64,000 bases of DNA from an uncultured Ignavibacteria bacterium (GCA_964617645.1 CAZTYE010000002.1:374648-438647), one strand, 5' to 3'. Positions 1 to 12,726 are shown, counted from the stretch's first letter. Notes: a model not told the origin generated them from the sequence alone. Numbers and translations: made by a program.

Positions 1-883
1 AGGTAATGTTGCCGATAATGATGAAGGCGACGATCACGACATGCGCCATCGTCTGCGGCCCCATCATTTGGAGTGCCGGAGTATCGATGTCCTTGAAGCG
101 TGGGTAGCGGTGAATCAGCTCGGCTTCATATTCCGCTGCGCCTTTAGTTCCACCCAAGAGCCCGACCAACTGCCGTGGGTAGTACGGGTACAGGAGCGGA
201 GTCGAAACGGCCGCCGCGCCGCCGCCGGTCGGCACGTTAGCGCGATCGCGGGCAAACAGCACCCATTCTTTGACACCGGGCTGGCCGCCGCCGATCGAAA
301 TCAGCAGATCCATGTCTTTGAGTGAGCGCACACCGGACATCATCGGAATCGAATCAAGCGACTTGCCGTTGATGTCGAAGGGGAACATCTTGCGAATGTC
401 AGTCACGATCACATTGAGCACGCCTTCATTACCGGCCTTATAGCCGAAGTTGATCCAGTCGACGCCGTACTGCGCGTCCGGAAATTCCGGCTTGAGGATT
501 TTCTCAATCGTCTCGCGCTGAAGCAGAGATTGACCGGTCGCCCAGAGCGAGAAGAAGTACACTTTATGACCTTTCGCCAGAGTGTGGCGCACGAAGGAAT
601 TGGCCATCGGCAGTACTTCCGGCGCCATTGCCGGATCGAAATCATAGGAGATGACGATCTTGGAACCGCTGGGGAGATCCTCAATTTTATCGAAGAGCGC
701 CTTGACAATCGGCGTCGCTTTCTCCCCGAACTTAAGTTGGAACAGCACCGCCAACGCCACCGTCAGGCCGATGAAGAGGAAGATGATCCGGCGGTCAACA
801 TCCTGCCCCCGCCATGAACGCAGAAAGACCCAAAATACGCCACCGCCGACAACGAAAGCTGAGACAATGAATCCAATGTTCAT
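1..883 (-). CDS. Cassette component C, second copy: protein with N- and C-terminal TM helices and a large periplasmic domain. Partial; the 3' end lies beyond the window start.
   Basis: Not in the ORF track because there is no stop in the window. Manual minus-strand translation from the ATG at 883..881 gives MNIGFIVSAFVVGGGVFWVF...LPSGSKIVISYDFDPAMAPEVLPMANSF...GVKEWVLFARDRANV...VVIVAFIIIGNIT. This aligns along its length with ORF 3434..4429 (LPPGSKVLMAYDYDPPSAPELQPMADAA...GTKEWVQIAVDRFNV...IVIWFIIVGNV). The start overlaps the stop of 880..1554 as ATGA. Confidence 0.6.
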   Translation of the reverse strand, partial: MNIGFIVSAFVVGGGVFWVFLRSWRGQDVDRRIIFLFIGLTVALAVLFQLKFGEKATPIVKALFDKIEDLPSGSKIVISYDFDPAMAPEVLPMANSFVRHTLAKGHKVYFFSLWATGQSLLQRETIEKILKPEFPDAQYGVDWINFGYKAGNEGVLNVIVTDIRKMFPFDINGKSLDSIPMMSGVRSLKDMDLLISIGGGQPGVKEWVLFARDRANVPTGGGAAAVSTPLLYPYYPRQLVGLLGGTKGAAEYEAELIHRYPRFKDIDTPALQMMGPQTMAHVVIVAFIIIGNIT

Positions 884-1554
884 TTATCCTGCCCCAGATA
901 ACTGCGTTCAATGCCCAAGAGCAGTCGCAAGCTCATCGATATCACGCCGAGCGCAATGCCGATCATGATTGCTCGCTGTCCGGCCAGATTGGGGGCGTTC
1001 ATAATCCAGATCGCCATATTGGGAATCTCCGCGAGCGACAGGCTCGGCGGCATCCAGGAGGTCATGATCATTCCGAGCGGCGTGCGTCCGAGCAGAATCA
1101 CGAAAGCCGCGATTAGCAGAATCGTTGCTTCAACGTTTTTGGCGCGAAACGCGCGATACGAGGCGGACGCGACGTAGAATGCCAGCAGTGAGTACATCGT
1201 CGCCTGCAGCGGCGAGATCATGTAGCGGAACAGCAGCTCGAAGTACGAGCCCGGCGCATCAACCGCGCCTTTGATGCCGATGGGATTGCCGATCTTAAAC
1301 AAGCCCACGGCCAGCACCGCGGCAAACCCGATCAATGTGACAACGGAGTATCCCCAATTCGGAGCCTGGCGGCCGATCTTGTCGGAGTGAACACGGATCA
1401 GATTCCCACCGCCAAGGAAGAATGCAAACACGGCGATGATGTCGAAGAACAAGGACGCTTCCTCGCCCCAACTCTCCAACGGCGGGATAAACACCGAGAA
1501 GATCAACACCCAGCCGACGACAATTGTGATTAGAAGCGGTATCTGTCTGCGCAT
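880..1554 (-). CDS. Cassette component B, second copy: polytopic integral membrane protein of unknown function.
   Basis: 224 aa, multiple hydrophobic helices. Clear paralog of 4431..5102; shared block LLAFYVASASYRAFRAKN / ILAFYVASASYRAFRARN and AGQRAIMIGIALGVISMSLRLLLGIERS / AGQRAIKIGIALGIVSTSLRIILGIERS. Confidence 0.6.
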   Translation of the reverse strand: MRRQIPLLITIVVGWVLIFSVFIPPLESWGEEASLFFDIIAVFAFFLGGGNLIRVHSDKIGRQAPNWGYSVVTLIGFAAVLAVGLFKIGNPIGIKGAVDAPGSYFELLFRYMISPLQATMYSLLAFYVASASYRAFRAKNVEATILLIAAFVILLGRTPLGMIMTSWMPPSLSLAEIPNMAIWIMNAPNLAGQRAIMIGIALGVISMSLRLLLGIERSYLGQDK

Positions 1555-1559
1555 AAACT

Positions 1560-2789
1560 CTAATTAATCGAGAAGATGCGGTGCATCCACTCTTCCAGCC
1601 GTTGCATTGAACCGATGTCCCAAGCTTGTCCAATCGTCGCCACCGTAGTGCCGACCAATATGGCAACCATGGCAATCGCTTTGCCCACGTCCTGCCCTTT
1701 GAGCGAACCCAACTGCTTCGGCTCTTCCGAGAGATAGGCCGATGCCGCGAATAGCTCTTCGCCGATCAGAGTGTAATCACAGGCTGCTACAAAGAACGGC
1801 AACTGCGCCGGCATCGCGGTGCCGGCGATCTGAATCGCTTCAATCGAGTTTCCGGTTTCCGCCAAGATCAGCGACTCGGCAAAAAACGCCCCTAAATAAA
1901 AGCAAGTAGCGGGTCTTTCGCGCACCATAATGCCGTTAGTCGCCGCGACAAAGCCGAACTGCTCGTCAGTGGTATAGTGCACCATGTCATCCGAGTAGCC
2001 ATCCGGCCGGCCAGCCGCCGCGTAGGCTTCCTTGATTATCTCACGCCCGGCCGTCATCACCAGTGACGCGCGACACGGCATATTGATCTTGGAATCGTAC
2101 TGCGCGATCGTACGCGCCACTCTGCTCAGCAGCGTCAAACCGGCCAATGTTTGGACATTATCCATATCTTGCGTGCCTGCGACGAACAACACCGGCCGCC
2201 CCATTTCGGTAGCGCGACCGACGGCCTCGTCAATCGCCTGCAATCCGGCAATCTGGCGCAGAAATAGTCTGCGGCCGCGTTTGGCGGTTTCGATGAACAG
2301 GATCACTGCGCCGCAGATGATCAGTCCGATGACGACCACCGACGTCTTGGATTTCTTGAACCACTGGCGGACAGATTGAACGGGCGCGCTCTCACCGGAG
2401 GCCAAGCGCCGATCGCCTAACACTGCGACAATCTGGTAAGTGAACGTTTCGCCGGTTTTGGCGTGGTCATCTTCAAAGTCGTAGGTCGCGCGGTCCACTC
2501 GGCCTACGGTATCGACAGCGCCGGTTGCCACGTTGCGCCGCAACACCTCGTAACTGGTAAACTCCGGCAGCTCGCCGTAGCCCGAGTCGACCCAGTTAAC
2601 CTGAATGTGATTTCCGTTGTCATCCGGAACGTCTTGTGCTGTAACGGTAATTGGCGGGAGATTCGCAATCACCGAATAGTCTTCAGCGACGGCAGATTGT
2701 GCCAGAAGCTTTGAGCAGTTTGCTGAAACGAGAAACCCAACTGCCAGAATGACAAGAACCGATATCGGCAGCCCGGGTCTCTTGATCAT
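1560..2789 (-). CDS. Cassette component A, second copy: signal/anchor, extracytoplasmic Fn3/Ig-like region, TM helix, roughly 230 aa conserved cytoplasmic domain, C-terminal TM. Function unknown.
   Basis: 409 aa; paralog of 5116..6348 (RRIAGLQAIDEAVGRATEMGRPV / RRIAGIEAVEEAIGRATEMGRKV; AFFAESLILAETGN identical; EELFAASAYL identical). 5-nt gap to the downstream gene. Confidence 0.6.
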   Translation of the reverse strand: MIKRPGLPISVLVILAVGFLVSANCSKLLAQSAVAEDYSVIANLPPITVTAQDVPDDNGNHIQVNWVDSGYGELPEFTSYEVLRRNVATGAVDTVGRVDRATYDFEDDHAKTGETFTYQIVAVLGDRRLASGESAPVQSVRQWFKKSKTSVVVIGLIICGAVILFIETAKRGRRLFLRQIAGLQAIDEAVGRATEMGRPVLFVAGTQDMDNVQTLAGLTLLSRVARTIAQYDSKINMPCRASLVMTAGREIIKEAYAAAGRPDGYSDDMVHYTTDEQFGFVAATNGIMVRERPATCFYLGAFFAESLILAETGNSIEAIQIAGTAMPAQLPFFVAACDYTLIGEELFAASAYLSEEPKQLGSLKGQDVGKAIAMVAILVGTTVATIGQAWDIGSMQRLEEWMHRIFSIN

Positions 2790-2794
2790 AAAAA

Positions 2795-3430
2795 TTATCG
2801 AATCAGTTTCAGCCAGTCGGTGAGCAGGAAATCGACGCGCCCGATCAGCAGCGACATACGGCTCATCACCGTATAGCCAAATGACGCGCCGAAAGTAATC
2901 ATCAGAATCCAGGTACCGAGTTTCGCGGCAAAGCCGAACGCGCCGCGATGTTCTTTAGAGAAGAAAAAGTAAATCAGCGCTGCGATGGTGCCAATCAGCA
3001 CCACCGACTGGCCAATGATCATCCCGACCGCGTCGAGCCCGATCATATTGCGCACCGAGGCATCCACCTGCGCGATCGCGTCGGTCACCAAATACACCAT
3101 GAGCTTGAGGCCGGCCGTCGCGCCGACGATAAATGCAATCGGCCATCGGGCAATCCAGCCGATCTTGTTGGACAGCCGCAGCAACATCATTACGCCCAGA
3201 ACTACACCCACCAGCAGCGTCAGATCACCTTCGTGGAAAATTCCGACGTACGCTTTGCGGTAAATATTATCCCAGAAATAAGTGATGAACCAGTAACCGG
3301 CGGAAATGCCGACAAATACCGCTTCAGCGATCTTGTACAGATAGTTGTCTTTATATAAGAAAGAGAAAATCCCCAGCGTCAATAGCGCGCCGATCCAAAT
3401 GCCGAGGGTTTGCATCGTCAGATGTTCCAT
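2795..3430 (-). CDS. Cassette component D: polytopic integral membrane protein of unknown function.
   Basis: 211 aa, about 6 hydrophobic segments. 3-nt gap to upstream C and 5-nt gap to downstream A', so it is embedded in the operon. Confidence 0.5.
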   Translation of the reverse strand: MEHLTMQTLGIWIGALLTLGIFSFLYKDNYLYKIAEAVFVGISAGYWFITYFWDNIYRKAYVGIFHEGDLTLLVGVVLGVMMLLRLSNKIGWIARWPIAFIVGATAGLKLMVYLVTDAIAQVDASVRNMIGLDAVGMIIGQSVVLIGTIAALIYFFFSKEHRGAFGFAAKLGTWILMITFGASFGYTVMSRMSLLIGRVDFLLTDWLKLIR

Positions 3431-3433
3431 CGC

Positions 3434-4429
3434 CTAACCCTTCCGCTCCTGGCGCCCAAGGAAGAATGCGACGTTGCCGACGATGATAAACCAGATGACG
3501 ATCGCATGCGAGAAAAGCTGCGACAGCAGCGCCACCGTTGCCCGTCCCGTCTCGTTGGTCGCGTTCTCGAATTCGGCGGCGCCGGTCATACCACCCACCA
3601 AACCATAGAGCTGCCCGGCATTGAGATAGGCATACATTTCCGGAGCTTGCACCGCCGTATTACCGGCCCCGACTTTGACATTAAATCGATCGACCGCGAT
3701 CTGCACCCACTCCTTGGTGCCGGGATATCCGGAAGACCAATTGGCGACGAAATCCACGTTGGAAAAATTCTCGACGCCGTTAAGCAGCGGGATTTGCTCA
3801 TAAGGGGTGTTGTTGACATCGCGGGGAAACATCGAGCGGAAACTTGAACCCATGCTCTGAATAACGAACTCGTTCCCCGACTGGAATCCGAGATTCACGT
3901 AGTCTACACCGTACTTGAGATTTTTGGCAGCGACTTCCGGCTCGGCCAGCGCGCGCGCGAGGGACAGATTCGCCTGCTGCGGACCCTGCGGCCAGAGTCC
4001 CATGACGATCACCTTCAGATCGTTCTTGAATGCAAACGCCATCGCCGCGTCCGCCATCGGCTGAAGTTCCGGCGCGGAGGGCGGGTCATAATCGTAGGCC
4101 ATCAATACCTTTGACCCCGGCGGCAGCGAATCAAGCGCATTGTAGAGACCGGCCACCTCTGGCGAGACTTTCGTTTCAAGGGAGATGCTCATGAAGTAAG
4201 GCAGCACCAACCCCACGGCGACAAACACGAACACCCAACGACGCTCGACAAACGTGCCGCGAATTGTGAGCATCAGCACACCCAAGACCGCCAGCGCCAA
4301 TAGGGCGATGACGATGTAGGACACCGTGGGCGAGAACTCGAGCGGCTGCGGATCGGACATGAAAGTGCGAATCGCCGCAATCAGGCAGATGAGGACCATG
4401 ATGATGTTAAACAGATGCTTCTTCATCAT
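3434..4429 (-). CDS. Cassette component C, first copy: bitopic protein (N- and C-terminal TM) with a periplasmic domain.
   Basis: 331 aa. N-terminal TM (IIMVLICLIAAI), second TM (IVIALLALAVLGVLML), C-terminal TM (AIVIWFIIVGNVAFFL). Paralog of the partial CDS at 1..883. Confidence 0.6.
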   Translation of the reverse strand: MMKKHLFNIIMVLICLIAAIRTFMSDPQPLEFSPTVSYIVIALLALAVLGVLMLTIRGTFVERRWVFVFVAVGLVLPYFMSISLETKVSPEVAGLYNALDSLPPGSKVLMAYDYDPPSAPELQPMADAAMAFAFKNDLKVIVMGLWPQGPQQANLSLARALAEPEVAAKNLKYGVDYVNLGFQSGNEFVIQSMGSSFRSMFPRDVNNTPYEQIPLLNGVENFSNVDFVANWSSGYPGTKEWVQIAVDRFNVKVGAGNTAVQAPEMYAYLNAGQLYGLVGGMTGAAEFENATNETGRATVALLSQLFSHAIVIWFIIVGNVAFFLGRQERKG

Positions 4430-4430
4430 C

Positions 4431-5102
4431 CTATCCCTCGAGATGCGACCTTTCGATGCCGAGAATGATGCGCAGCGATGTCGACACGATACCGAGCGCG
4501 ATTCCGATCTTGATGGCGCGCTGTCCGGCGGTGTGCGGGAAGTTCATAATCCAACTCGCCCAGTCGGAAGACTGAAAGCCTTGCGGCATCCACGAAGTGA
4601 GCATATCTCCAAGCGGCACGCGGCCCAGCATCACCAAGAAACCGGCGATTAGCAGTAGCGTGGCCTGCAAGTTGCGCGCCCGGAACGCGCGATACGACGC
4701 GGACGCCACATAGAACGCCAGAATCGCGAACATTGTCGCCGACAACGGTGTGTAAACGAAAGTATATAGCCAGTCGAAATGCGTGCCCGGATCGCGGAAC
4801 GATGTCGGCGGTTCGTTTTGCAGACCATTGTAGCCGTCAATGAACCCGACGATAACCATCAAAAGGAAGCACACCACGACGACAATCGCCAACTGCCACT
4901 CGTGAGACTTCCGCGAAATCTTGGTGAACGACATCTTCATCAGGTTGAGCGCGCCCAACCAGATCGCGAACGACGCGACTATCGTAAACCACTCGTTGTA
5001 GTAGCCCTCGAGTTCACTGAACGGAGTATGCGGAATGAAGTACGAAAGGACGAAAACCAGACCAACAACGAGGGTGATAATGATTGGGACTTCGCGCCGC
5101 AT
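4431..5102 (-). CDS. Cassette component B, first copy: polytopic membrane protein.
   Basis: 223 aa; paralog of 880..1554. 1-nt gap to the C gene. Confidence 0.6.
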   Translation of the reverse strand: MRREVPIIITLVVGLVFVLSYFIPHTPFSELEGYYNEWFTIVASFAIWLGALNLMKMSFTKISRKSHEWQLAIVVVVCFLLMVIVGFIDGYNGLQNEPPTSFRDPGTHFDWLYTFVYTPLSATMFAILAFYVASASYRAFRARNLQATLLLIAGFLVMLGRVPLGDMLTSWMPQGFQSSDWASWIMNFPHTAGQRAIKIGIALGIVSTSLRIILGIERSHLEG

Positions 5103-5115
5103 TCTCTATCGCTTC

Positions 5116-6348
5116 CTACTGAACCTGAACAATTTTTAGGATCTCATGCCAGCCAAATCCAACAGCCACGATCATGGCCAATATTATGTAGATCAGAAAC
5201 GCAGCTTTGGCGAAGTCCTGCCCTTTGAGCGAACCGAGCAATTTCGGCTCGCGCGCCAGATACGCCGACGCCGCGAAGAGTTCCTCGCCAATCAACGTGT
5301 AGTCGCAAGACGCCACAAAGAACGGCAATTGCGACGGCTGACCGGTACCGGCGATTTGAATCGCGCCGGCGGCATTGCCGGTTTCGGCGAGAATCAGCGA
5401 TTCGGCAAAGAAGGCGCCCATGTAAAACATCGTCGCAGGCTTGTCGCGCACGACCATGCCGTCGATGGCGGCGGCATAACCGAATTGGTCGTCGGTGACA
5501 TAGTGCACTTGATCTTCGCGGAAGGCATCCGGTCGGCCGGCCTTCTGGTAGGCCTCGCGAACAGCCTCCCGTCCGGTCACCATTACCAGCGACTTGCAGA
5601 CCGGCACATCGAGCATCGTGTCGTTCTCAGCGGCGATTTTCGCGACGCGACCAAGAATCGTAATTGCGGCGATTGTCTGCACATCGTCCATATCCTGAAT
5701 GCCAGGAATGAACATCACCTTGCGACCCATTTCGGTCGCGCGTCCGATGGCTTCTTCAACCGCCTCGATGCCGGCGATCCTGCGAACGTATAGCTCCTTG
5801 CCCGACTTGGCAATCTGGATGTAGATCAGAATTGCGCCGCAGATGATCAGTGTCCACAGGAAGATCCAAATTCGATTGAGATTAAACCACTGCGCGCTCG
5901 GCGCCACCGGACCAACAACCACTGATGCCGCAGCCGAGCTTAAGGCGCCGTCGGCTTTGTCCGGTGCGAATACCGCAACCACCTTATAGAAATAACTCTG
6001 TCCATCAACTAAATCGCCGTTCGTGAAACTATTCTGCCCCTGGGTCGTCTCCCCGATCACTGTGAAATCGCTATCGGCGGAATTGGCGCGCATGACCTGA
6101 TACTTGGTCACAGCGGATACGTCGTCCGGCGACAAGTCCCAGCGAATCTCCAAGCTCGTCCCATTGTCGTAGGGAGTGTCTTTAACGATAACATTCGCCG
6201 GCGGCGCCGGAACGGGAATAGTCGGAATCGCCGTTGTGACTGCTGTTGTGTCGTTGGCTGGTGGGGTATCTACTTGACCAAAAACGGAAAGATAATGAAC
6301 GAGGACGATGGCAAAGCTCAGGCTGATCAGCGATTTCAAGCCGCGCAC
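5116..6348 (-). CDS. Cassette component A, first copy: signal peptide, Fn3/Ig-like domain, TM, conserved cytoplasmic domain, C-terminal TM.
   Basis: 410 aa. N-terminal hydrophobic leader, Thr/Pro-rich linker, beta-rich segment (YQVMRANSADSDFTVIGETT...YFYKVVAV), TM (IWIFLWTLIICGAILIYI), then the domain shared with 1560..2789. Confidence 0.6.
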   Translation of the reverse strand: MRGLKSLISLSFAIVLVHYLSVFGQVDTPPANDTTAVTTAIPTIPVPAPPANVIVKDTPYDNGTSLEIRWDLSPDDVSAVTKYQVMRANSADSDFTVIGETTQGQNSFTNGDLVDGQSYFYKVVAVFAPDKADGALSSAAASVVVGPVAPSAQWFNLNRIWIFLWTLIICGAILIYIQIAKSGKELYVRRIAGIEAVEEAIGRATEMGRKVMFIPGIQDMDDVQTIAAITILGRVAKIAAENDTMLDVPVCKSLVMVTGREAVREAYQKAGRPDAFREDQVHYVTDDQFGYAAAIDGMVVRDKPATMFYMGAFFAESLILAETGNAAGAIQIAGTGQPSQLPFFVASCDYTLIGEELFAASAYLAREPKLLGSLKGQDFAKAAFLIYIILAMIVAVGFGWHEILKIVQVQ

Positions 6349-6475
6349 ATTCCTCCCAAAGTCCTCCGTCGCGAAGGGCTGATTCGTTGAGCAAACCGTG
6401 TCAATAATTAAGACGAGACAGCGTTCGGTTTGTCCAACGAAAATCGCGCCGGGAATTCAATACCGAATTGCGCGC

Positions 6476-6504
6476 AACTTAGGGCGACCCGCAGTGAGTG
6501 TCAA
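6476..6504 (-). promoter_or_regulatory. Candidate sigma-70-type promoter for the cassette operon.
   Basis: On the minus strand: TTGACA (6504..6499), 17-nt spacer, TAAGTT (6481..6476), about 125 nt upstream of the start at 6348. Confidence 0.25.
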
Positions 6505-6664
6505 GCCTAAAATCGGGAACGACTGCTCAAGCAGCGTGGCGTCTGCTCCCGTTGAATGGAGCGCTGCCGGGCGGTTAACCCGGAAGCGCTGGATTTGAGA
6601 CGTTTTGGACTAAGAGATTCGTCTCCCAATTGACACATCGAGCGCAAAAAGCGAAACAACGCCG

Positions 6665-9418
6665 CTACTTGAGCAGTACCATCTTGCGCGACGATTCGAA
6701 GGACCCAGCACGCATTCGAACAAAGTATACGCCCGAACTGATCTCGCGGCCATCGACACCCCGGCCATCCCAACTTAGGGTATAGATACCCGGAGGTCGG
6801 GGCGAGTCAGCAAGCGTTGTGACTAATTCACCCAGGCTGTTGTGAATTGTCACCGCTACATCTGCATTGTGCGGTACCTCAAAAGTGACCGCCGTTGATA
6901 GGTTGAACGGGTTCGGATAGTTCTGTCGCAGTTCAAAGTCCGTCGGCAGCGATTGCTGCGCCAGAGTACCTTTCGCCGGATCATGCACTGGCATCGTATC
7001 AGAGTAACAGCAGACATCCATGCGCCCGCTCGTCGTCGATACGGGCGCCGAAGGTCGCCCGGTGCGATCCCAAGGATCGACCGAGAACATCGTCACTACC
7101 ACCGGTTCGAACAAGTACTTGGCACAGAATCTTATAGAGTAACCCGTCAACTCCCGAAACCAGAACGTCTCGTTGTGCGAAGGATAATAGATGCGCGCAT
7201 CATATGTCAGATCGAAGTTGTTCTGGTTGAGGGGATATTGCCAGCTCAGATTCAGAACCTGCGTTGGATCGCTCCCGGATAGTTCCGGGGCGATTGCAAC
7301 ATTTCGCGGCGGATTCGGGCCGTTAACGAATGAAGCCTCCGGTGAATACTGCGGCATCCATTGGGTTTCAATGTAAGGATATACCTTATAGTAGATCCGT
7401 TCCGTTCCCGTGAGCGCTGCCAAGGCATCGTCTGTCCATGTGATGATATTTGGGCCGACAGTATCGACAATCGCGTAGATGCCATTGAGCCCTACTTTCC
7501 TTATAATAACGGTGCCCTGCTCGTTCGGATTCTTGTCGTCCCAGTTGAGCACGCAGTTGTCGGCAGCATAGTTAGGCGTAACCGTCAGCGAGGCGGGATT
7601 GTCCAACTCAACTTCACCAGCTACCGCATAGCTAAAAACAACCTCTTCGGCCCGGCATGGGTAATGGTTATCGCCACCGTCGATGTGGTAGACGTAACTC
7701 ACTAATTCGCACCCGGTCTCTGTAACGCTGCCCTCGACAACTCCTGTCCAGTACAATTCGTAGTTTGGATTTGTGGGAGCCGCGCCTGTCGATCCGGCGT
7801 GCCGTCCCCAAACAAGCGGCGGATCATAGTAGCGGCGGGGGAACGTGATTTGTTTTCGTACCTCGACACGGTCCACCCGACGGTAGACGTTCGAGATAAT
7901 GAAGCGCCACGTTTGATCCTCAATGCCGCCTATCGCCGTACCGTTGGCAGCCGTGTAGAAATCAACGGCATTGGGAAAAGTAATCGCTTTCATTGCTGCT
8001 CCCACATCGATGATTCCGTGGCCGGTGTAGATGTCGTATCCAATTGATGCCTCAGCATCAATCGTCGGAGTCACATCCGTCGCCGTCAATTTCAGCAGGT
8101 TTTCCACGTCTCTCATTTGAAGCGATTGATTGAGAGAATACAATAGAGCAGCCGAACCGGAGACCATCGGCGCGGAGCAGGAAGTACCGGAAAAATAACC
8201 AGATGTCGATTCGTCCCAAAGGGCTCGGTGAGACGTTCCGGGAGCAACCGCGTCGATGTGGAAACCAACGGCCGACTCCCAATTGTAGTTTAACGATCTA
8301 CGAACCCGCTGTCCTAGCCCGTCCGTGGCACCAACGGCGAAAACTATGTCCTTGTATCCAGCCGGGTACTGGGTGTCAAGCGGATCGCCTTCCTCGCAAC
8401 CGTCGATGTCGGTATTCCCCATTGCAGCGACGAACAACACGTCATTGATATAAGCCTCCCACACGGCCTCGATGAAACTGTGATTCAGGCCAAAGATGTC
8501 GCAGAAACCGTTACTGTAATTGACAACTCTTACATTGGATCCAATTAGATTGTACAGCGAACCAATGTCCTCCCACGAATGGTGATCAGTCTTATAAAGC
8601 CAGAGGCGACAACCTTTGTTGCCAGTTCCGCCAATCGGATCATAGGACCAACCCCCGGCTATACCGGCAGAAAGGCCGCTAAAATTCGGATTGGGCAGGT
8701 GATAGTTGTTGGTCAACCCAGCGGCAATACCAGCGACAGAAGTGCCGTGGTTTCGGCTTGGTTCACCGGCTGGCGGTTGAATGGGACTGGCATTGACGTA
8801 TTGAACCTTTCCGTATGGCCCCGCATCGCCGAAGTCGTCATTCTGAATATAGAAGCCATTATCCAGAACGGCGATGGCCACATTCGGATCGCCGGTCTCG
8901 ATCGACCAAGCGACTTCCGCGCCAATGCCATAGTAATTTGAACTCCTGAACCCCCAATTGAAACCGCTCACGTAGTCATAGTCATTTGGGGCTATGTTTG
9001 GCTTCGTAATGAAGCCCGGTGTGAATGAGACAACTTTCGACACGGTGTCGAGCGCGGCGCGCACGTCGGTTGAACCGCGCGCGGTCGGCCATTTCGCGAT
9101 CACCATATTGGCCATCGTGATTGGCGGCAATCCCAAAATGTCGCGAACAGTAAGCTGTTTGTCGCGATAGTCGGGTATCGGTCGGTCGCCAAGTCTCCGA
9201 ATGCTGTCGATGCCGGCGCTGATTAGCGCGGCCCGCAGCGACTCATCCATGTGATCGACTTGGAGAATACCCGTGAAGGAAACGGGGACGCCTTCTATCA
9301 GGCGTGCGTCTTCAACGGCAATGATTCCGATGCCCGGCACCTCCTGTGCGAATACAACCGAGCAAAGAAGAAGATAGATGCCCCCAATACTGAGCAATAC
9401 GATCTTGAGTGATTGCAT
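6665..9418 (-). CDS. Subtilisin-like serine peptidase (S8 family) with T9SS C-terminal sorting domain.
   Basis: 917 aa. Signal peptide; catalytic triad motifs AVLDNGF (Asp), HGTSVAGIAAG (His), GTSCSAPMVSGSAALL (Ser); C-terminus LRQNYPNPFNLSTAVTFEV...VYFVRMRAGSFESSRKMVLLK matches the Por/T9SS secretion tail. Confidence 0.8.
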   Translation of the reverse strand: MQSLKIVLLSIGGIYLLLCSVVFAQEVPGIGIIAVEDARLIEGVPVSFTGILQVDHMDESLRAALISAGIDSIRRLGDRPIPDYRDKQLTVRDILGLPPITMANMVIAKWPTARGSTDVRAALDTVSKVVSFTPGFITKPNIAPNDYDYVSGFNWGFRSSNYYGIGAEVAWSIETGDPNVAIAVLDNGFYIQNDDFGDAGPYGKVQYVNASPIQPPAGEPSRNHGTSVAGIAAGLTNNYHLPNPNFSGLSAGIAGGWSYDPIGGTGNKGCRLWLYKTDHHSWEDIGSLYNLIGSNVRVVNYSNGFCDIFGLNHSFIEAVWEAYINDVLFVAAMGNTDIDGCEEGDPLDTQYPAGYKDIVFAVGATDGLGQRVRRSLNYNWESAVGFHIDAVAPGTSHRALWDESTSGYFSGTSCSAPMVSGSAALLYSLNQSLQMRDVENLLKLTATDVTPTIDAEASIGYDIYTGHGIIDVGAAMKAITFPNAVDFYTAANGTAIGGIEDQTWRFIISNVYRRVDRVEVRKQITFPRRYYDPPLVWGRHAGSTGAAPTNPNYELYWTGVVEGSVTETGCELVSYVYHIDGGDNHYPCRAEEVVFSYAVAGEVELDNPASLTVTPNYAADNCVLNWDDKNPNEQGTVIIRKVGLNGIYAIVDTVGPNIITWTDDALAALTGTERIYYKVYPYIETQWMPQYSPEASFVNGPNPPRNVAIAPELSGSDPTQVLNLSWQYPLNQNNFDLTYDARIYYPSHNETFWFRELTGYSIRFCAKYLFEPVVVTMFSVDPWDRTGRPSAPVSTTSGRMDVCCYSDTMPVHDPAKGTLAQQSLPTDFELRQNYPNPFNLSTAVTFEVPHNADVAVTIHNSLGELVTTLADSPRPPGIYTLSWDGRGVDGREISSGVYFVRMRAGSFESSRKMVLLK

Positions 9419-9436: not shown

Positions 9437-10363
9437 TTACCGAGTTAGTTGTACATCTCTGCCTGTTTTCAAATCATAAGTGAACAAAAAGTACTTGTCT
9501 TTCGGAATTCCGCCGGATACGACGCGTCTTGGGCTTGAATGGATAACGTTCATGCCATCCCGCGAGAAGCACTCAACGAGTCTTTGCCCAATTCTAACCT
9601 CCTTTCCTGAACTAAGGCTGAGTACGATGGTTTGGAACTGTCCGACGACGACTCGGAAGCAGACACTATCGCCACCTGCCGAGACAGCGGGAAAAGCACA
9701 TCCGGAACGAAGCTCGGTTAACTCCTGAGTTAAGGCGTCAACGAAATACAGCGACCCCGACAACTCGAACACCAATCTTGGCTCATTGGGCATCCATCGC
9801 GGCCGAGTCCAATTGTATGCCGCGTACGGCGTGCTACCACCGATTCGGACAAGTGTAACGGATGAGATATCGATGAGAAATATGCGTGAAGGGAGCGTAA
9901 GTTGACTTCTCGTTGATACTGCGATAGTCTTACCGTCTGTCGAGAAACTAGTGTATTGCAATTCACCGATGCTTGTAAGCCGAGTATCAGCCCCAGTCGC
10001 AACAGATCGAATGTAGAGATCTCCGTCGACTTGCGAGATGTACGCAATCGTATCACCCGAAGGACTCCAGGAGGGGTAGCTGCCGCCATAGATGACGAGA
10101 CTGTCGTTCGTTCCATCAGCGTTGATGACGTAGATCCCCGGCAATTTGCTATGACTGTCGACGGGATCATAGAAGGTTACAGGAGTATGTTCATATGCGA
10201 TTACATCGCGGACGGGATTCCAAGCTGCTCGCCAGTCACGGATCGGGACCGGCACGACCGGCACCGGGTTGGTGTCACCGCCCCCGAGGAAATTATCCCC
10301 GCATCCGAGCGCGACGACAACCGCCACGCCCAAGCACACACCACAATACCGGAACTTTCCCAT
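9437..10363 (-). CDS. TolB-like beta-propeller lipoprotein (PD40/WD40-like repeats).
   Basis: Likely start at the internal Met (MGKFRYCGVCLGVAVVVALGCGD, lipobox LGC). Repeated SWSPSGDTIAY / SFSTDGKTIAV motifs typical of TolB-type propellers. Confidence 0.5.
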   Translation of the reverse strand: MGKFRYCGVCLGVAVVVALGCGDNFLGGGDTNPVPVVPVPIRDWRAAWNPVRDVIAYEHTPVTFYDPVDSHSKLPGIYVINADGTNDSLVIYGGSYPSWSPSGDTIAYISQVDGDLYIRSVATGADTRLTSIGELQYTSFSTDGKTIAVSTRSQLTLPSRIFLIDISSVTLVRIGGSTPYAAYNWTRPRWMPNEPRLVFELSGSLYFVDALTQELTELRSGCAFPAVSAGGDSVCFRVVVGQFQTIVLSLSSGKEVRIGQRLVECFSRDGMNVIHSSPRRVVSGGIPKDKYFLFTYDLKTGRDVQLTR

Positions 10364-10534
10364 TTCCGCCTCTTCCGTTGTGGAACCAGAGTACAATTCG
10401 ACAGCAATAGAATTGACGCGGCGATTGTCAGATTGTCAAACGGTTTTTTGACTTTTTAATCTTCTTTAATATCGGATACGTCTATCCAACTCGGCGAACA
10501 GACGTATCCTATTGATTTGCAACAGCGTGAAGAC

Positions 10535-11461
10535 CTAATACCCCAGCACCTTGAGATGCTCTTTGTAGGTCGCGGCCGATTTCTGCAACGCCGCCAATTC
10601 CGGCGCGTCGAGTTTGAGTTCGATGATCTTCTCGACACCGCCGTTACCAAGCACCACCGGCACGCCGATGTAAATGTCGTTGATGCCGTATTGTCCGGTC
10701 AGCAACGCCGAACACGGGAACACTTTTTTCGTATCGGAGAGAACGGCCTTGACCATCTCGACCGAAGCCGCCGCCGGTGCATAGTACGCCGATCCGGTCT
10801 TGAGCAGCGCGACGATCTCGGCGCCGCCGTCGATGGTGCGCTTGGCGAGTGCGTCGATCCGCTCTTTGGGCATCAACTCGGTAATCGGCACGCCGCCGAC
10901 GGTCGTGTAGCGCGGCAGCGGCACCATCGTGTCGCCGTGACCGCCGAGCACCATCGCCTCCGTGCCGGTTTGCGCGATACCAAGCTCCCAACCGACGAAT
11001 GTGCGAAAGCGCACCGAGTCGAGTATTCCCGCCTGCCCGAAAATGCGGTTGGCCGGAAAGCCGGTGACTTTGTAGGCATGATAGGTCATTAGATCGAGCG
11101 GATTGGCAACCATGATAATCATCGCCTGATCGGCATATTGTTTGACACTCTTGGCAACCGAGCCGATGATCTCGGCGTTCTTGATCAACAGATCTTCGCG
11201 CGACATTCCCGGTTTGCGCGCCAGACCCGCAGTGTGAACTACGATGTCAGAGCCTTTGAGCATCGAGAAATCGTTGGTGCCGCTGATCTGGACGTCGTAG
11301 CCGCGCACCGGGCCGGCTTGCATCAAATCCAGCGCTTTGCCCTGAGGTAGGCCTTCGACAACATCGAATAGCGTGATGTCGCAAACGTTATCTTCGGCCA
11401 AGTACTGCGCGACCGCCGCGCCGACATTTCCCGCTCCGATGACTGAAACCTTCTTACGCAT
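10535..11461 (-). CDS. mdh: Malate dehydrogenase (LDH-like MDH family).
   Basis: MRKKVSVIGAGNVGAAVA Rossmann motif. Strong family resemblance throughout (IVVHTAGLARKPGMSREDLL, MVLGGHGDTMVPL). Start taken at the Met that gives the canonical N-terminus. Confidence 0.85.
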   Translation of the reverse strand: MRKKVSVIGAGNVGAAVAQYLAEDNVCDITLFDVVEGLPQGKALDLMQAGPVRGYDVQISGTNDFSMLKGSDIVVHTAGLARKPGMSREDLLIKNAEIIGSVAKSVKQYADQAMIIMVANPLDLMTYHAYKVTGFPANRIFGQAGILDSVRFRTFVGWELGIAQTGTEAMVLGGHGDTMVPLPRYTTVGGVPITELMPKERIDALAKRTIDGGAEIVALLKTGSAYYAPAAASVEMVKAVLSDTKKVFPCSALLTGQYGINDIYIGVPVVLGNGGVEKIIELKLDAPELAALQKSAATYKEHLKVLGY

Positions 11462-11478
11462 AGTGTCCTCCCACTTCA

Positions 11479-12726
11479 TCACACCCGGGCTTGCGGCCGA
11501 CCGGCGAACGAAAGCGTCTGCGCGGCGGCATCAAGCACGACTGCGATTTTGGCGTTTTGTCCATATTGATCAATCAAATCGTCCAATGTATTTTGCGCAT
11601 CCGCCGTCGGCCGAATCGGCAGATCCAGCAGGACGCGCGAATCAAGCTTTGAGCATAGCACAAGGCGTAGGCGCTTGGCAAGAGCGATTGTGCGATGGAC
11701 TTTGTGGATGCCCATCATCCCTCTTTCGCCCGTTGCTGATGCTGGAATTTTGCCGGTTGCGATCTGAGCGGCGATCTTCAGGAATCGATCATCCCCGATT
11801 CCCTCCGCACAAGCCGAGATCAGCAGGATCGTCCCCCCCTCGCGAACCGCCGCGGCGACGTTCTCGTATGACTTCTGCAACTGGTACAGGTTGCGATCCA
11901 ATGGCGGGTAGACGACGCTGATTACGACATCGAACGGCTCGCGGACTTCATGCCCGAAGTTCGTCGCGACGTACTCGCAACACCGGTCGTAAGTCTGATC
12001 CCAGTCGCCGCTGGCCGCAAAGTATACCCGCTGCTTGTGATCACAGACGACCTGAATCGCGAGGCGATCTTTGCCATTGAGAGACTGCGTTCGCGCGAAG
12101 ATGTCTTCCCAAACCGGATTGCCGCTTCGTTTCAGCGGTTGGCTCTCAGCGCTGACGGCGCAAGCATGATTGCGCTCGACATCACGGAATGAAGCGCAGC
12201 CCGGCAGGATGATTTTGCGGCCACCGGTAAACCCGGCAAAGTAGTGCGGCTCGACCGAGCCGATGATCAGAATCGCTTCCGCCCAAGCGAGCCAGTCGTT
12301 GAGCCGCACGGCGTCTTCGCCCGATCCGAAGTCCGCCAGCTCGATTTCGTTGAATGCATCATGGACGCGAATCCGCTTGCCGATGCGATCCGCCCAGGCC
12401 CCGAAGATCTTCTGCGGATTCGAGACCTGTGCGCCTTGGTGCAATCCTGTCGCGACGAGGAATCGCAAATGCGACATGTCCATGCCCGGCAAAATGCGGT
12501 CGAGAATCGCCGCCGTCGGCGTCGGGCGGAAGGCATCATTGACGACGATTAACGTCCGGCCTGACGAGCGAAGAAAGTCGTGAATAGCATGCGGGAGAGT
12601 TCCCTGCTTGAGCCAATGCGAATCATCGATCGGCCGCAGGCGTTTGGCTGGTAGATCGAAGACCACCGCCGCATCAGGAATCGACAGGGGAATTGATGTG
12701 TCATCGTAGTGGACTTGGATGATCAT
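11479..12726 (-). CDS. LarA-family (nickel-pincer-nucleotide-dependent) 2-hydroxyacid racemase/epimerase-like protein (DUF2088).
   Basis: 415 aa with the LarA-like GFTGGRK-type motif (HYFAGFTGGRKIILPG). Length and architecture match lactate racemase homologs. Assignment by family resemblance only. Confidence 0.5.
   Translation of the reverse strand: MIIQVHYDDTSIPLSIPDAAVVFDLPAKRLRPIDDSHWLKQGTLPHAIHDFLRSSGRTLIVVNDAFRPTPTAAILDRILPGMDMSHLRFLVATGLHQGAQVSNPQKIFGAWADRIGKRIRVHDAFNEIELADFGSGEDAVRLNDWLAWAEAILIIGSVEPHYFAGFTGGRKIILPGCASFRDVERNHACAVSAESQPLKRSGNPVWEDIFARTQSLNGKDRLAIQVVCDHKQRVYFAASGDWDQTYDRCCEYVATNFGHEVREPFDVVISVVYPPLDRNLYQLQKSYENVAAAVREGGTILLISACAEGIGDDRFLKIAAQIATGKIPASATGERGMMGIHKVHRTIALAKRLRLVLCSKLDSRVLLDLPIRPTADAQNTLDDLIDQYGQNAKIAVVLDAAAQTLSFAGRPQARV

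Follow-up and report, generated by a model that had tools for sequence, protein, structure and literature searches.

What is encoded by seven closely packed genes for membrane proteins of no assigned function, and why do they come in two versions? The question is raised by one end of a 64-kb stretch of DNA (64,000 nucleotides (nt), read on one strand; hereafter the window) from an uncultured Ignavibacteria bacterium (GCA_964617645.1, CAZTYE010000002.1:374648-438647). Here window positions 1-6348 hold, all on the minus strand, the genes A, B, C, D, A', B' and C', which the original prediction took for two copies of a four-gene cassette specifying an undescribed multi-subunit envelope complex. 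From comparison of sequences across many genomes, we judge the chances to be evenly balanced that A-D form an undescribed four-subunit complex of the inner membrane, probably driven or serviced by a module of two further proteins, X and Y, encoded beside the cassette in related genomes.

A four-gene unit and its probable partner module

The cassette was followed by tblastn maps through 64 genome loci, mostly from Zixibacteria metagenome-assembled genomes (MAGs), and through 80 metagenome loci obtained by a scan with the conserved domain of A. In the genome loci A-B-C-D is repeated three times on one strand, with the triplication found in about 30 related Zixibacteria loci; a perfect 12-gene call was obtained in 18 loci, and most others are ended by contig ends. 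Median gaps in the 18 complete arrays range from -4 to 18 nt, with 4 and 18 nt at the cassette junctions. The A-B-C-D order and the tight spacing are kept in more than 100 loci from at least five phyla, and duplication of the cassette, in genome and metagenome loci alike, always involves the whole unit. Furthermore, in two of the D-family representatives, P0370 and P0428, C and D are naturally fused into one protein. Residues 6-269 of P0370 match C' (E-value 5e-77) and its residues 366-597 match D (E 7e-61), and the two parts are joined by one extra transmembrane (TM) helix, which places the N-terminus of D in the periplasm. The invariant order and spacing, the fusions and the whole-unit duplication together strengthen the inference of a complex and lend support to the envelope assembly that had been proposed.

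The window genes are the first seven of such an array, which in the closest relatives is a twelve-gene, tightly spaced operon. Trees of A and of B are congruent and contain three deep clades, the window genes A-D falling into clade 1 and A'-C' into clade 2. The second copy is indeed cut by the window edge, as had been suspected: the array is broken off after the clade 2 C gene, and the relatives have three copies. To judge from relatives L001-L003 (73-90% identity), it very probably continues beyond the window with D' and a third cassette; exact-sequence look-ups of A, A', B' and C matched no recorded contig. Copy number in Zixibacteria is one, two or three, some having only clades 1 and 2. 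Three-cassette arrays are also present in L081, L083 and L108, where the order of paralog types (by best match) differs from the Zixibacteria order 1-2-3; the triplication may thus have arisen, or been rearranged, more than once.

The families are large, with at least 8000 relatives of A (clusters at 90% identity), at least 3086 homologs of B and 1998 representatives of D at 50% clustering. Exact-sequence cluster look-ups place the single-copy form in Planctomycetaceae/Planctomycetales MAGs, Cloacimonadota, one Gemmatimonadota MAG and Eiseniibacteriota. In the cultured planctomycete Rubinisphaera margarita the whole system is a single seven-gene operon (MCG6154681-687), in which Z, Y, A, C and D are MCG6154681, 683, 684, 686 and 687.

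Z, X and Y often stand beside the cassette, and many metagenome loci have Z-X-Y-A-B-C-D on one strand. Of the 77 loci with an informative upstream flank, 40 have X or Y no more than 3 kb from the array; in 20 loci all three genes precede A on the same strand, and in 17 loci three cassettes are accompanied by a single copy each of X and Y. X (about 615 amino acids (aa), including a C-terminal extension of about 130 aa) matches the full PF13941 model of MutL/GlmL-family ASKHA proteins (E 2e-128), and its phosphate-binding motifs, ATDCGSTTTKA and GVDIGGATTDVFSV, are invariant in 41 sequences. Its NCBIfam scores are 229.7 bits for GlmL (cutoff 475) and 214 bits for Or-4 (cutoff 600); X thus stays below the GlmL equivalog cutoff, and no mutase genes were found among the conserved neighbours. 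Y is a soluble protein of 375 aa (72% mean column identity) that belongs to no curated family; its N-terminus gives a weak signal for a barrel-sandwich hybrid, and its tail is KOW-like. Sub-threshold matches among 19 members of Y are to Biotin_lipoyl (15/19), RnfC_N (8/19) and NQRA_N (2/19), and the rest of the protein is unrelated by sequence. An alignment of Y with RraA was weak (E 0.23), lacked Pfam support and was set aside. The linkage of these genes to the cassette would point to an ATP-driven mechanism.

In two loci (L104 4041-8900 and L114 894-5600) Z is the gene immediately upstream of A, without an intervening X or Y, which suggests that Z may be tied more tightly to the cassette than X and Y are. 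In L079 (1778-2221, plus strand) a 147-aa hydrophobic open reading frame (ORF) without a Pfam family lies 66 nt upstream of Z-X-Y-A-B-C-D. It recurs in the upstream flank of five other loci and may be an eighth component.

The window genes and their products

ORF calls place the seven genes where they had been predicted. The first copy, in paralog clade 1, comprises A (5116-6348; 410 aa, GTG start with a GGGAGG Shine-Dalgarno sequence upstream), B (4431-5102; 223 aa), C (3434-4429; 331 aa) and D (2795-3430; 211 aa). The second, in clade 2, comprises A' (1560-2789; 409 aa), B' (880-1554; 224 aa) and C' (1-883; 294 codons visible, the 3' end cut by the window edge). Gaps or overlaps of 5 nt or less had been claimed throughout; they are found at five junctions (B-C 1 nt, C-D 3, D-A' 5, A'-B' 5 and B'-C' -4, an ATGA overlap) but not at A-B, where the distance is 13 nt.

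The two copies are paralogous, as had been noticed, and share long identical blocks. A and A' are 49% identical over 354 aa (E 6e-127), B and B' 47% (E 5e-69) and C and C' 33% over 295 aa (E 2e-59), and the blocks AFFAESLILAETGN and YVASASYRAFRA are found in both copies. This similarity is not limited to TM segments, since the soluble domains are also similar. Purifying selection acts on all seven genes: the ratio of non-synonymous to synonymous substitution rates (dN/dS) against the closest orthologs is about 0.04-0.13, with dS saturated. Both copies are therefore maintained, and the deep clades confirm that the duplication is old. A, B, C and D were also compared with one another by hhalign; every pair had a probability below 3%, so the four families are unrelated at profile level and a deep common origin of the components was rejected.

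A has the layout described for it at the outset, namely a signal peptide, a predicted periplasmic fibronectin type III (Fn3) domain (5905-6204, minus strand; aa 49-148), a TM helix, a cytoplasmic six-stranded alpha/beta domain (5251-5799, minus strand; aa 184-366) and a C-terminal TM helix. The AlphaFold2 model has a predicted local distance difference test (pLDDT) score of 87. The Fn3 domain is a seven-stranded beta-sandwich that also matches Pfam fn3. The remainder of the protein, from TM helix through alpha/beta domain to TM helix, matches a Pfam domain of unknown function, DUF6754 (PF20539; gathering threshold 27 bits), at 402 bits in A (E 1.1e-120) and 401 bits in A', over model positions 2-252 of 257. 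A and A' are full-length members, and the planctomycete A protein (WP_238753885.1) also belongs to the family, at 399 bits. Within the cytoplasmic domain the motifs GRATEMG, AE..L..ETGN, Q..GT and CD.TL.GEEL.AAS.YL. are invariant, and identity is 61% among paralogs and 83% among orthologs.

B and D are polytopic, as expected, each with about six TM helices. C had been thought bitopic, but its periplasmic, Rossmann-like alpha/beta domain (3545-4171, minus strand; aa 87-295) is preceded by three TM helices (two in C') and followed by a C-terminal one. In this domain DYDP, E121, W146, E240-W241 and GG..GAAEFE are invariant. B has invariant motifs at its predicted cytoplasmic face (FYVASASYRAFRA and GQRA...LGIER), and those of D are SFLYKDN..YK, YFFFSKEH.G and FGASFGYTVM.R. 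The motifs invariant across all paralogs of A-D are polar, the invariant residues of B and D are mostly at the cytoplasmic face, and in A, B and D conservation is highest in the segments facing the cytoplasm. Hydropathy and the positive-inside rule suggest a periplasmic position for the Fn3 domain and the domain of C, and a cytoplasmic one for the DUF6754 domain.

Several homologs carry additions. In the planctomycete-type B (614 aa; L126 10775-12619) the periplasmic loop that follows TM3 is enlarged by an insertion of about 390 aa without a Pfam match; the third-cassette B of some Zixibacteria (L035-L038) is enlarged similarly, by about 1.1 kb. In six D-family representatives (P0361, P0363, P0414, P0426, P0494 and P0495) the loop that follows TM4 contains insertions of about 170-350 aa. 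Some of these are charged and helical, and those of P0361 and P0363 contain repeated EF-hand-like DxDxDG motifs. The D homologs P0429 and P0396 have an extra N-terminal TM helix plus a periplasmic extension.

To what family do these proteins belong? Searches with hidden Markov models (HMMs) assign A to DUF6754 only, and B, C and D matched no family in Pfam or NCBIfam; scanning 34 B and 28 D sequences one by one against Pfam gave nothing consistent. PDB chains were searched by sequence and by profile with the A domain, B, D, X and Y, and nothing significant came up; the isolated soluble domains gave nothing consistent against Pfam and PDB sequences, where the alpha/beta domain of A found no relative beyond DUF6754. 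Fold searches with the A and C models picked out nothing but the Fn3 domain in A and, in C, a generic Rossmann-like fold. PADLOC defence models matched none of A, B, C, D, X, Y and Z. A match of B to DUF373 (E 2.5e-4), present in 4/34 members among scattered hydrophobic-family matches, was rejected as noise. The first impression that no motif points to a known transporter, respiratory or secretion family has thus held, and HMM searches for a known system of the ABC, MotAB or Rnf type assigned none to A-D. By sequence, the cassette is assignable to no described kind of system, and its largest family, A, is already catalogued as a DUF.

Upstream of A lies a non-coding leader of 316 nt (6349-6664, minus strand), which is likely the promoter region of the operon. 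It matched no known leader or riboswitch RNA family, a cobalamin riboswitch included. A sigma-70 promoter scan found no match, which is uninformative because promoters of the FCB group differ from the sigma-70 consensus. Directly upstream of the array, at 6665-9418 (minus strand), is a 917-aa subtilase (Peptidase_S8) with C-terminal FlgD_ig and Por_Secre_tail domains, likely a type IX secretion substrate. It is followed at 9437-12726 (minus strand) by genes for a PD40-like beta-propeller protein (319 aa), malate dehydrogenase (Mdh) and a LarA-like lactate racemase homolog. Mdh and LarA also precede the array in related Zixibacteria loci (e.g., L006 and L012); this neighbourhood is conserved lineage synteny, and a functional tie to the array is not obvious.

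A possible mechanism and its alternatives

How could such a complex work? A, B, C and D would assemble 1:1:1:1 in the inner membrane, and soluble X-Y would dock on the conserved cytoplasmic face provided by the alpha/beta domain of A and the loops of B and D. ATP turnover by X would drive or service a conformational or transport cycle, the output of which would appear at the fast-evolving periplasmic face (Fn3, the C domain and the loop insertions of B and D). In Zixibacteria one X-Y would be shared by three diverged membrane modules, which would form three complexes working in parallel or a single pseudo-symmetric hetero-assembly. For the complex itself, a role directed at the envelope is most plausible. 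A bolder version, which we offer tentatively and consider doubtful as a whole, is that Z-X-Y-A-B-C-D is a trans-membrane machine of a new class, its ABCD core powered through the DUF6754 domain by an ASKHA-fold (GlmL-type) ATPase, instead of a P-loop ATPase or ion-motive force. From the FCB group to the Planctomycetota it would serve transport or remodelling directed at the periplasm or envelope, and the Zixibacteria form would be a three-module array of 12 subunits with one motor. One X-Y for up to three ABCD cassettes recalls systems with a shared energiser, such as the ATP-binding cassette (ABC) ATPases, EI/HPr of the phosphotransferase system (PTS) and TonB-ExbBD. The likeness is an analogy only, the conserved set here being without a P-loop ATPase, PTS or Ton components.

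Several points weigh against a complex driven by X-Y. X, Y and Z are absent from the 64-kb window, and loci of the Cloacimonadota and Gemmatimonadota types have none of the three within 5-10 kb of the cassette, nor any alternative shared partner. Because of these absences, the X-Y partnership may be facultative or merely syntenic. X has no solved structural relative in a profile search against PDB sequences, and we know of no demonstrated mechanism for the GlmL family. In the fold searches with A, Fn3 matches filled both lists and masked its alpha/beta domain. Finally, the conservation gradient from cytoplasm to periplasm is the same in orthologs as in paralogs, so that by itself it gives no support for differing periplasmic specificities; a periplasm-specific diversification of the paralogs was accordingly dropped.

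Do the three Zixibacteria cassettes act together? It is possible, if doubtful, that they build one obligate, pseudo-threefold (ABCD)x3 super-complex, of which the single-copy form would be a homo-oligomer; the alternative is three independent complexes. The super-complex would agree with the close coupling of all 12 genes in a single operon, even across the cassette junctions (4 and 18 nt), with the joint retention of three clades over deep divergence and with the single X-Y per array. However, some Zixibacteria have clades 1 and 2 only (L028, L040, L052 and L062), the cassette order varies in L081, L083 and L108, and every invariant motif is kept in all three copies, which fits three autonomous units equally well.

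About 11 loci of a single Zixibacteria lineage have X-N9-Y immediately before a same-strand tolQ-tolR-tolA-tolB-pal-cpoB cluster, the ABCD array being divergent. This raises the rather unlikely alternative of a scaffold for envelope morphogenesis or division, in which ABCD would be a platform rather than a transporter and X a membrane-tethered ATPase of the actin/Hsp70 type, like FtsA, MreB or PilM, organising periplasmic partners via the Fn3 and C domains. X does belong to the ASKHA fold family, the system occurs in budding Planctomycetaceae, and the periplasmic additions are variable (Fn3, insertions in D that are EF-hand-like or coiled-coil-like, and the 390-aa insertion in B). Tol-Pal and the cassette both have an inner-membrane part with periplasm-facing domains. 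On the other hand, A-D show no homology to TolQ, TolR, TolA or TolB, and the Tol-Pal synteny is limited to that one lineage. The GlmL/hydantoinase branch of ASKHA comprises enzymes or chaperone-like proteins, for which polymerisation is not known, and the invariant polar pockets in the cytoplasmic domain of A and in the C domain resemble ligand sites, not scaffold surfaces.

Alternatively, though improbably, A-D could be a highly diverged member of a known membrane family, either Rnf/Nqr-like or a permease set of the ABC-2 or PTS type. There is a superficial likeness to Rnf/Nqr in the two 6-TM subunits of about 210 aa, similar in size and TM count to RnfA/E and NqrD/E, in the TM-anchored subunit with a periplasmic domain, and in a soluble partner, Y, with a putative N-terminal barrel-sandwich hybrid and the weak Biotin_lipoyl, RnfC_N and NQRA_N matches given above. 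However, sequence homology is not detectable: the 34 B and 28 D sequences gave no Rnf-Nqr, MotA_ExbB, ABC permease or PTS match at E <=0.1. The C domain is Rossmann-like and has no FMN_bind match, A-D have no flavin mononucleotide-binding or iron-sulphur motifs and no cofactor-domain Pfam match (iron-sulphur, flavin), and the soluble partner is an ASKHA ATPase, not a redox module. Neither MotA_ExbB nor ExbD/MotB matched in A-D, and none of the EIIC/EIID or EIIA/EIIB families of mannose-type PTS permeases was matched in Pfam or NCBIfam. The ABC candidates for B are sub-threshold transmembrane-domain matches (ABC2_membrane_5 in 1/34 members, TMD0_ABC in 5/34), and no ABC ATPase is found among the conserved neighbours in the 144 loci. 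With the same tool, genuine TolQ (E 2e-31) and TolR (E 5e-25) were found without difficulty in neighbouring genes.

Slightly less probable still is a membrane-anchored enzyme, in which the alpha/beta domain of A or the C domain would bind a cofactor or substrate and X-Y would repair or load it using ATP, by analogy with GlmL and the diol-dehydratase reactivases. X matches the whole GlmL/MutL model with both phosphate-binding motifs kept, reaching 230 bits against NCBIfam GlmL and 214 bits against Or-4; the A domain is Rossmann-like and carries invariant residues (acidic, Cys and Thr) where its strands end; and X, Y and the cytoplasmic domain of A are very highly conserved, as is typical for enzymes. 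These scores are nevertheless far under the equivalog cutoffs (475 and 600 bits). X is linked to a membrane cassette instead of a mutase, with no B12 mutase or other enzyme genes conserved nearby, A-D have no B12-binding, iron-sulphur or flavin motif or such a Pfam match, and no cobalamin riboswitch was found. That the genes are simply co-transcribed and encode membrane proteins with independent roles is very improbable, given an A-B-C-D order invariant in at least five phyla, start and stop codons that overlap or abut, whole-unit duplication and natural C-D fusions.

Meaning for the families and their hosts

DUF6754 has been a catalogue entry without function, structure or literature, and its B, C and D partners, its triplication and its link to Z-X-Y come from this analysis. 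Our literature search found no paper mentioning DUF6754, PF20539 or PF13941, and nothing relevant for combinations of GlmL/ASKHA with Planctomycetes or Zixibacteria. At least four families without assigned function, structure or literature (A, B, C and D) thus belong to one conserved genetic unit spread over at least five bacterial phyla. Sediments, the deep ocean and anaerobic digesters are habitats in which these phyla are prominent.

The triplication in Zixibacteria is a clean natural case of whole-complex duplication with all copies retained long-term. With the seven-gene operon present in cultured Rubinisphaera margarita, the question is open to direct genetics and biochemistry. If A-D prove to be a real complex coupled to an ASKHA ATPase, they would represent a new type of energised membrane machinery and would provide the first functional context for non-mutase GlmL-like proteins.

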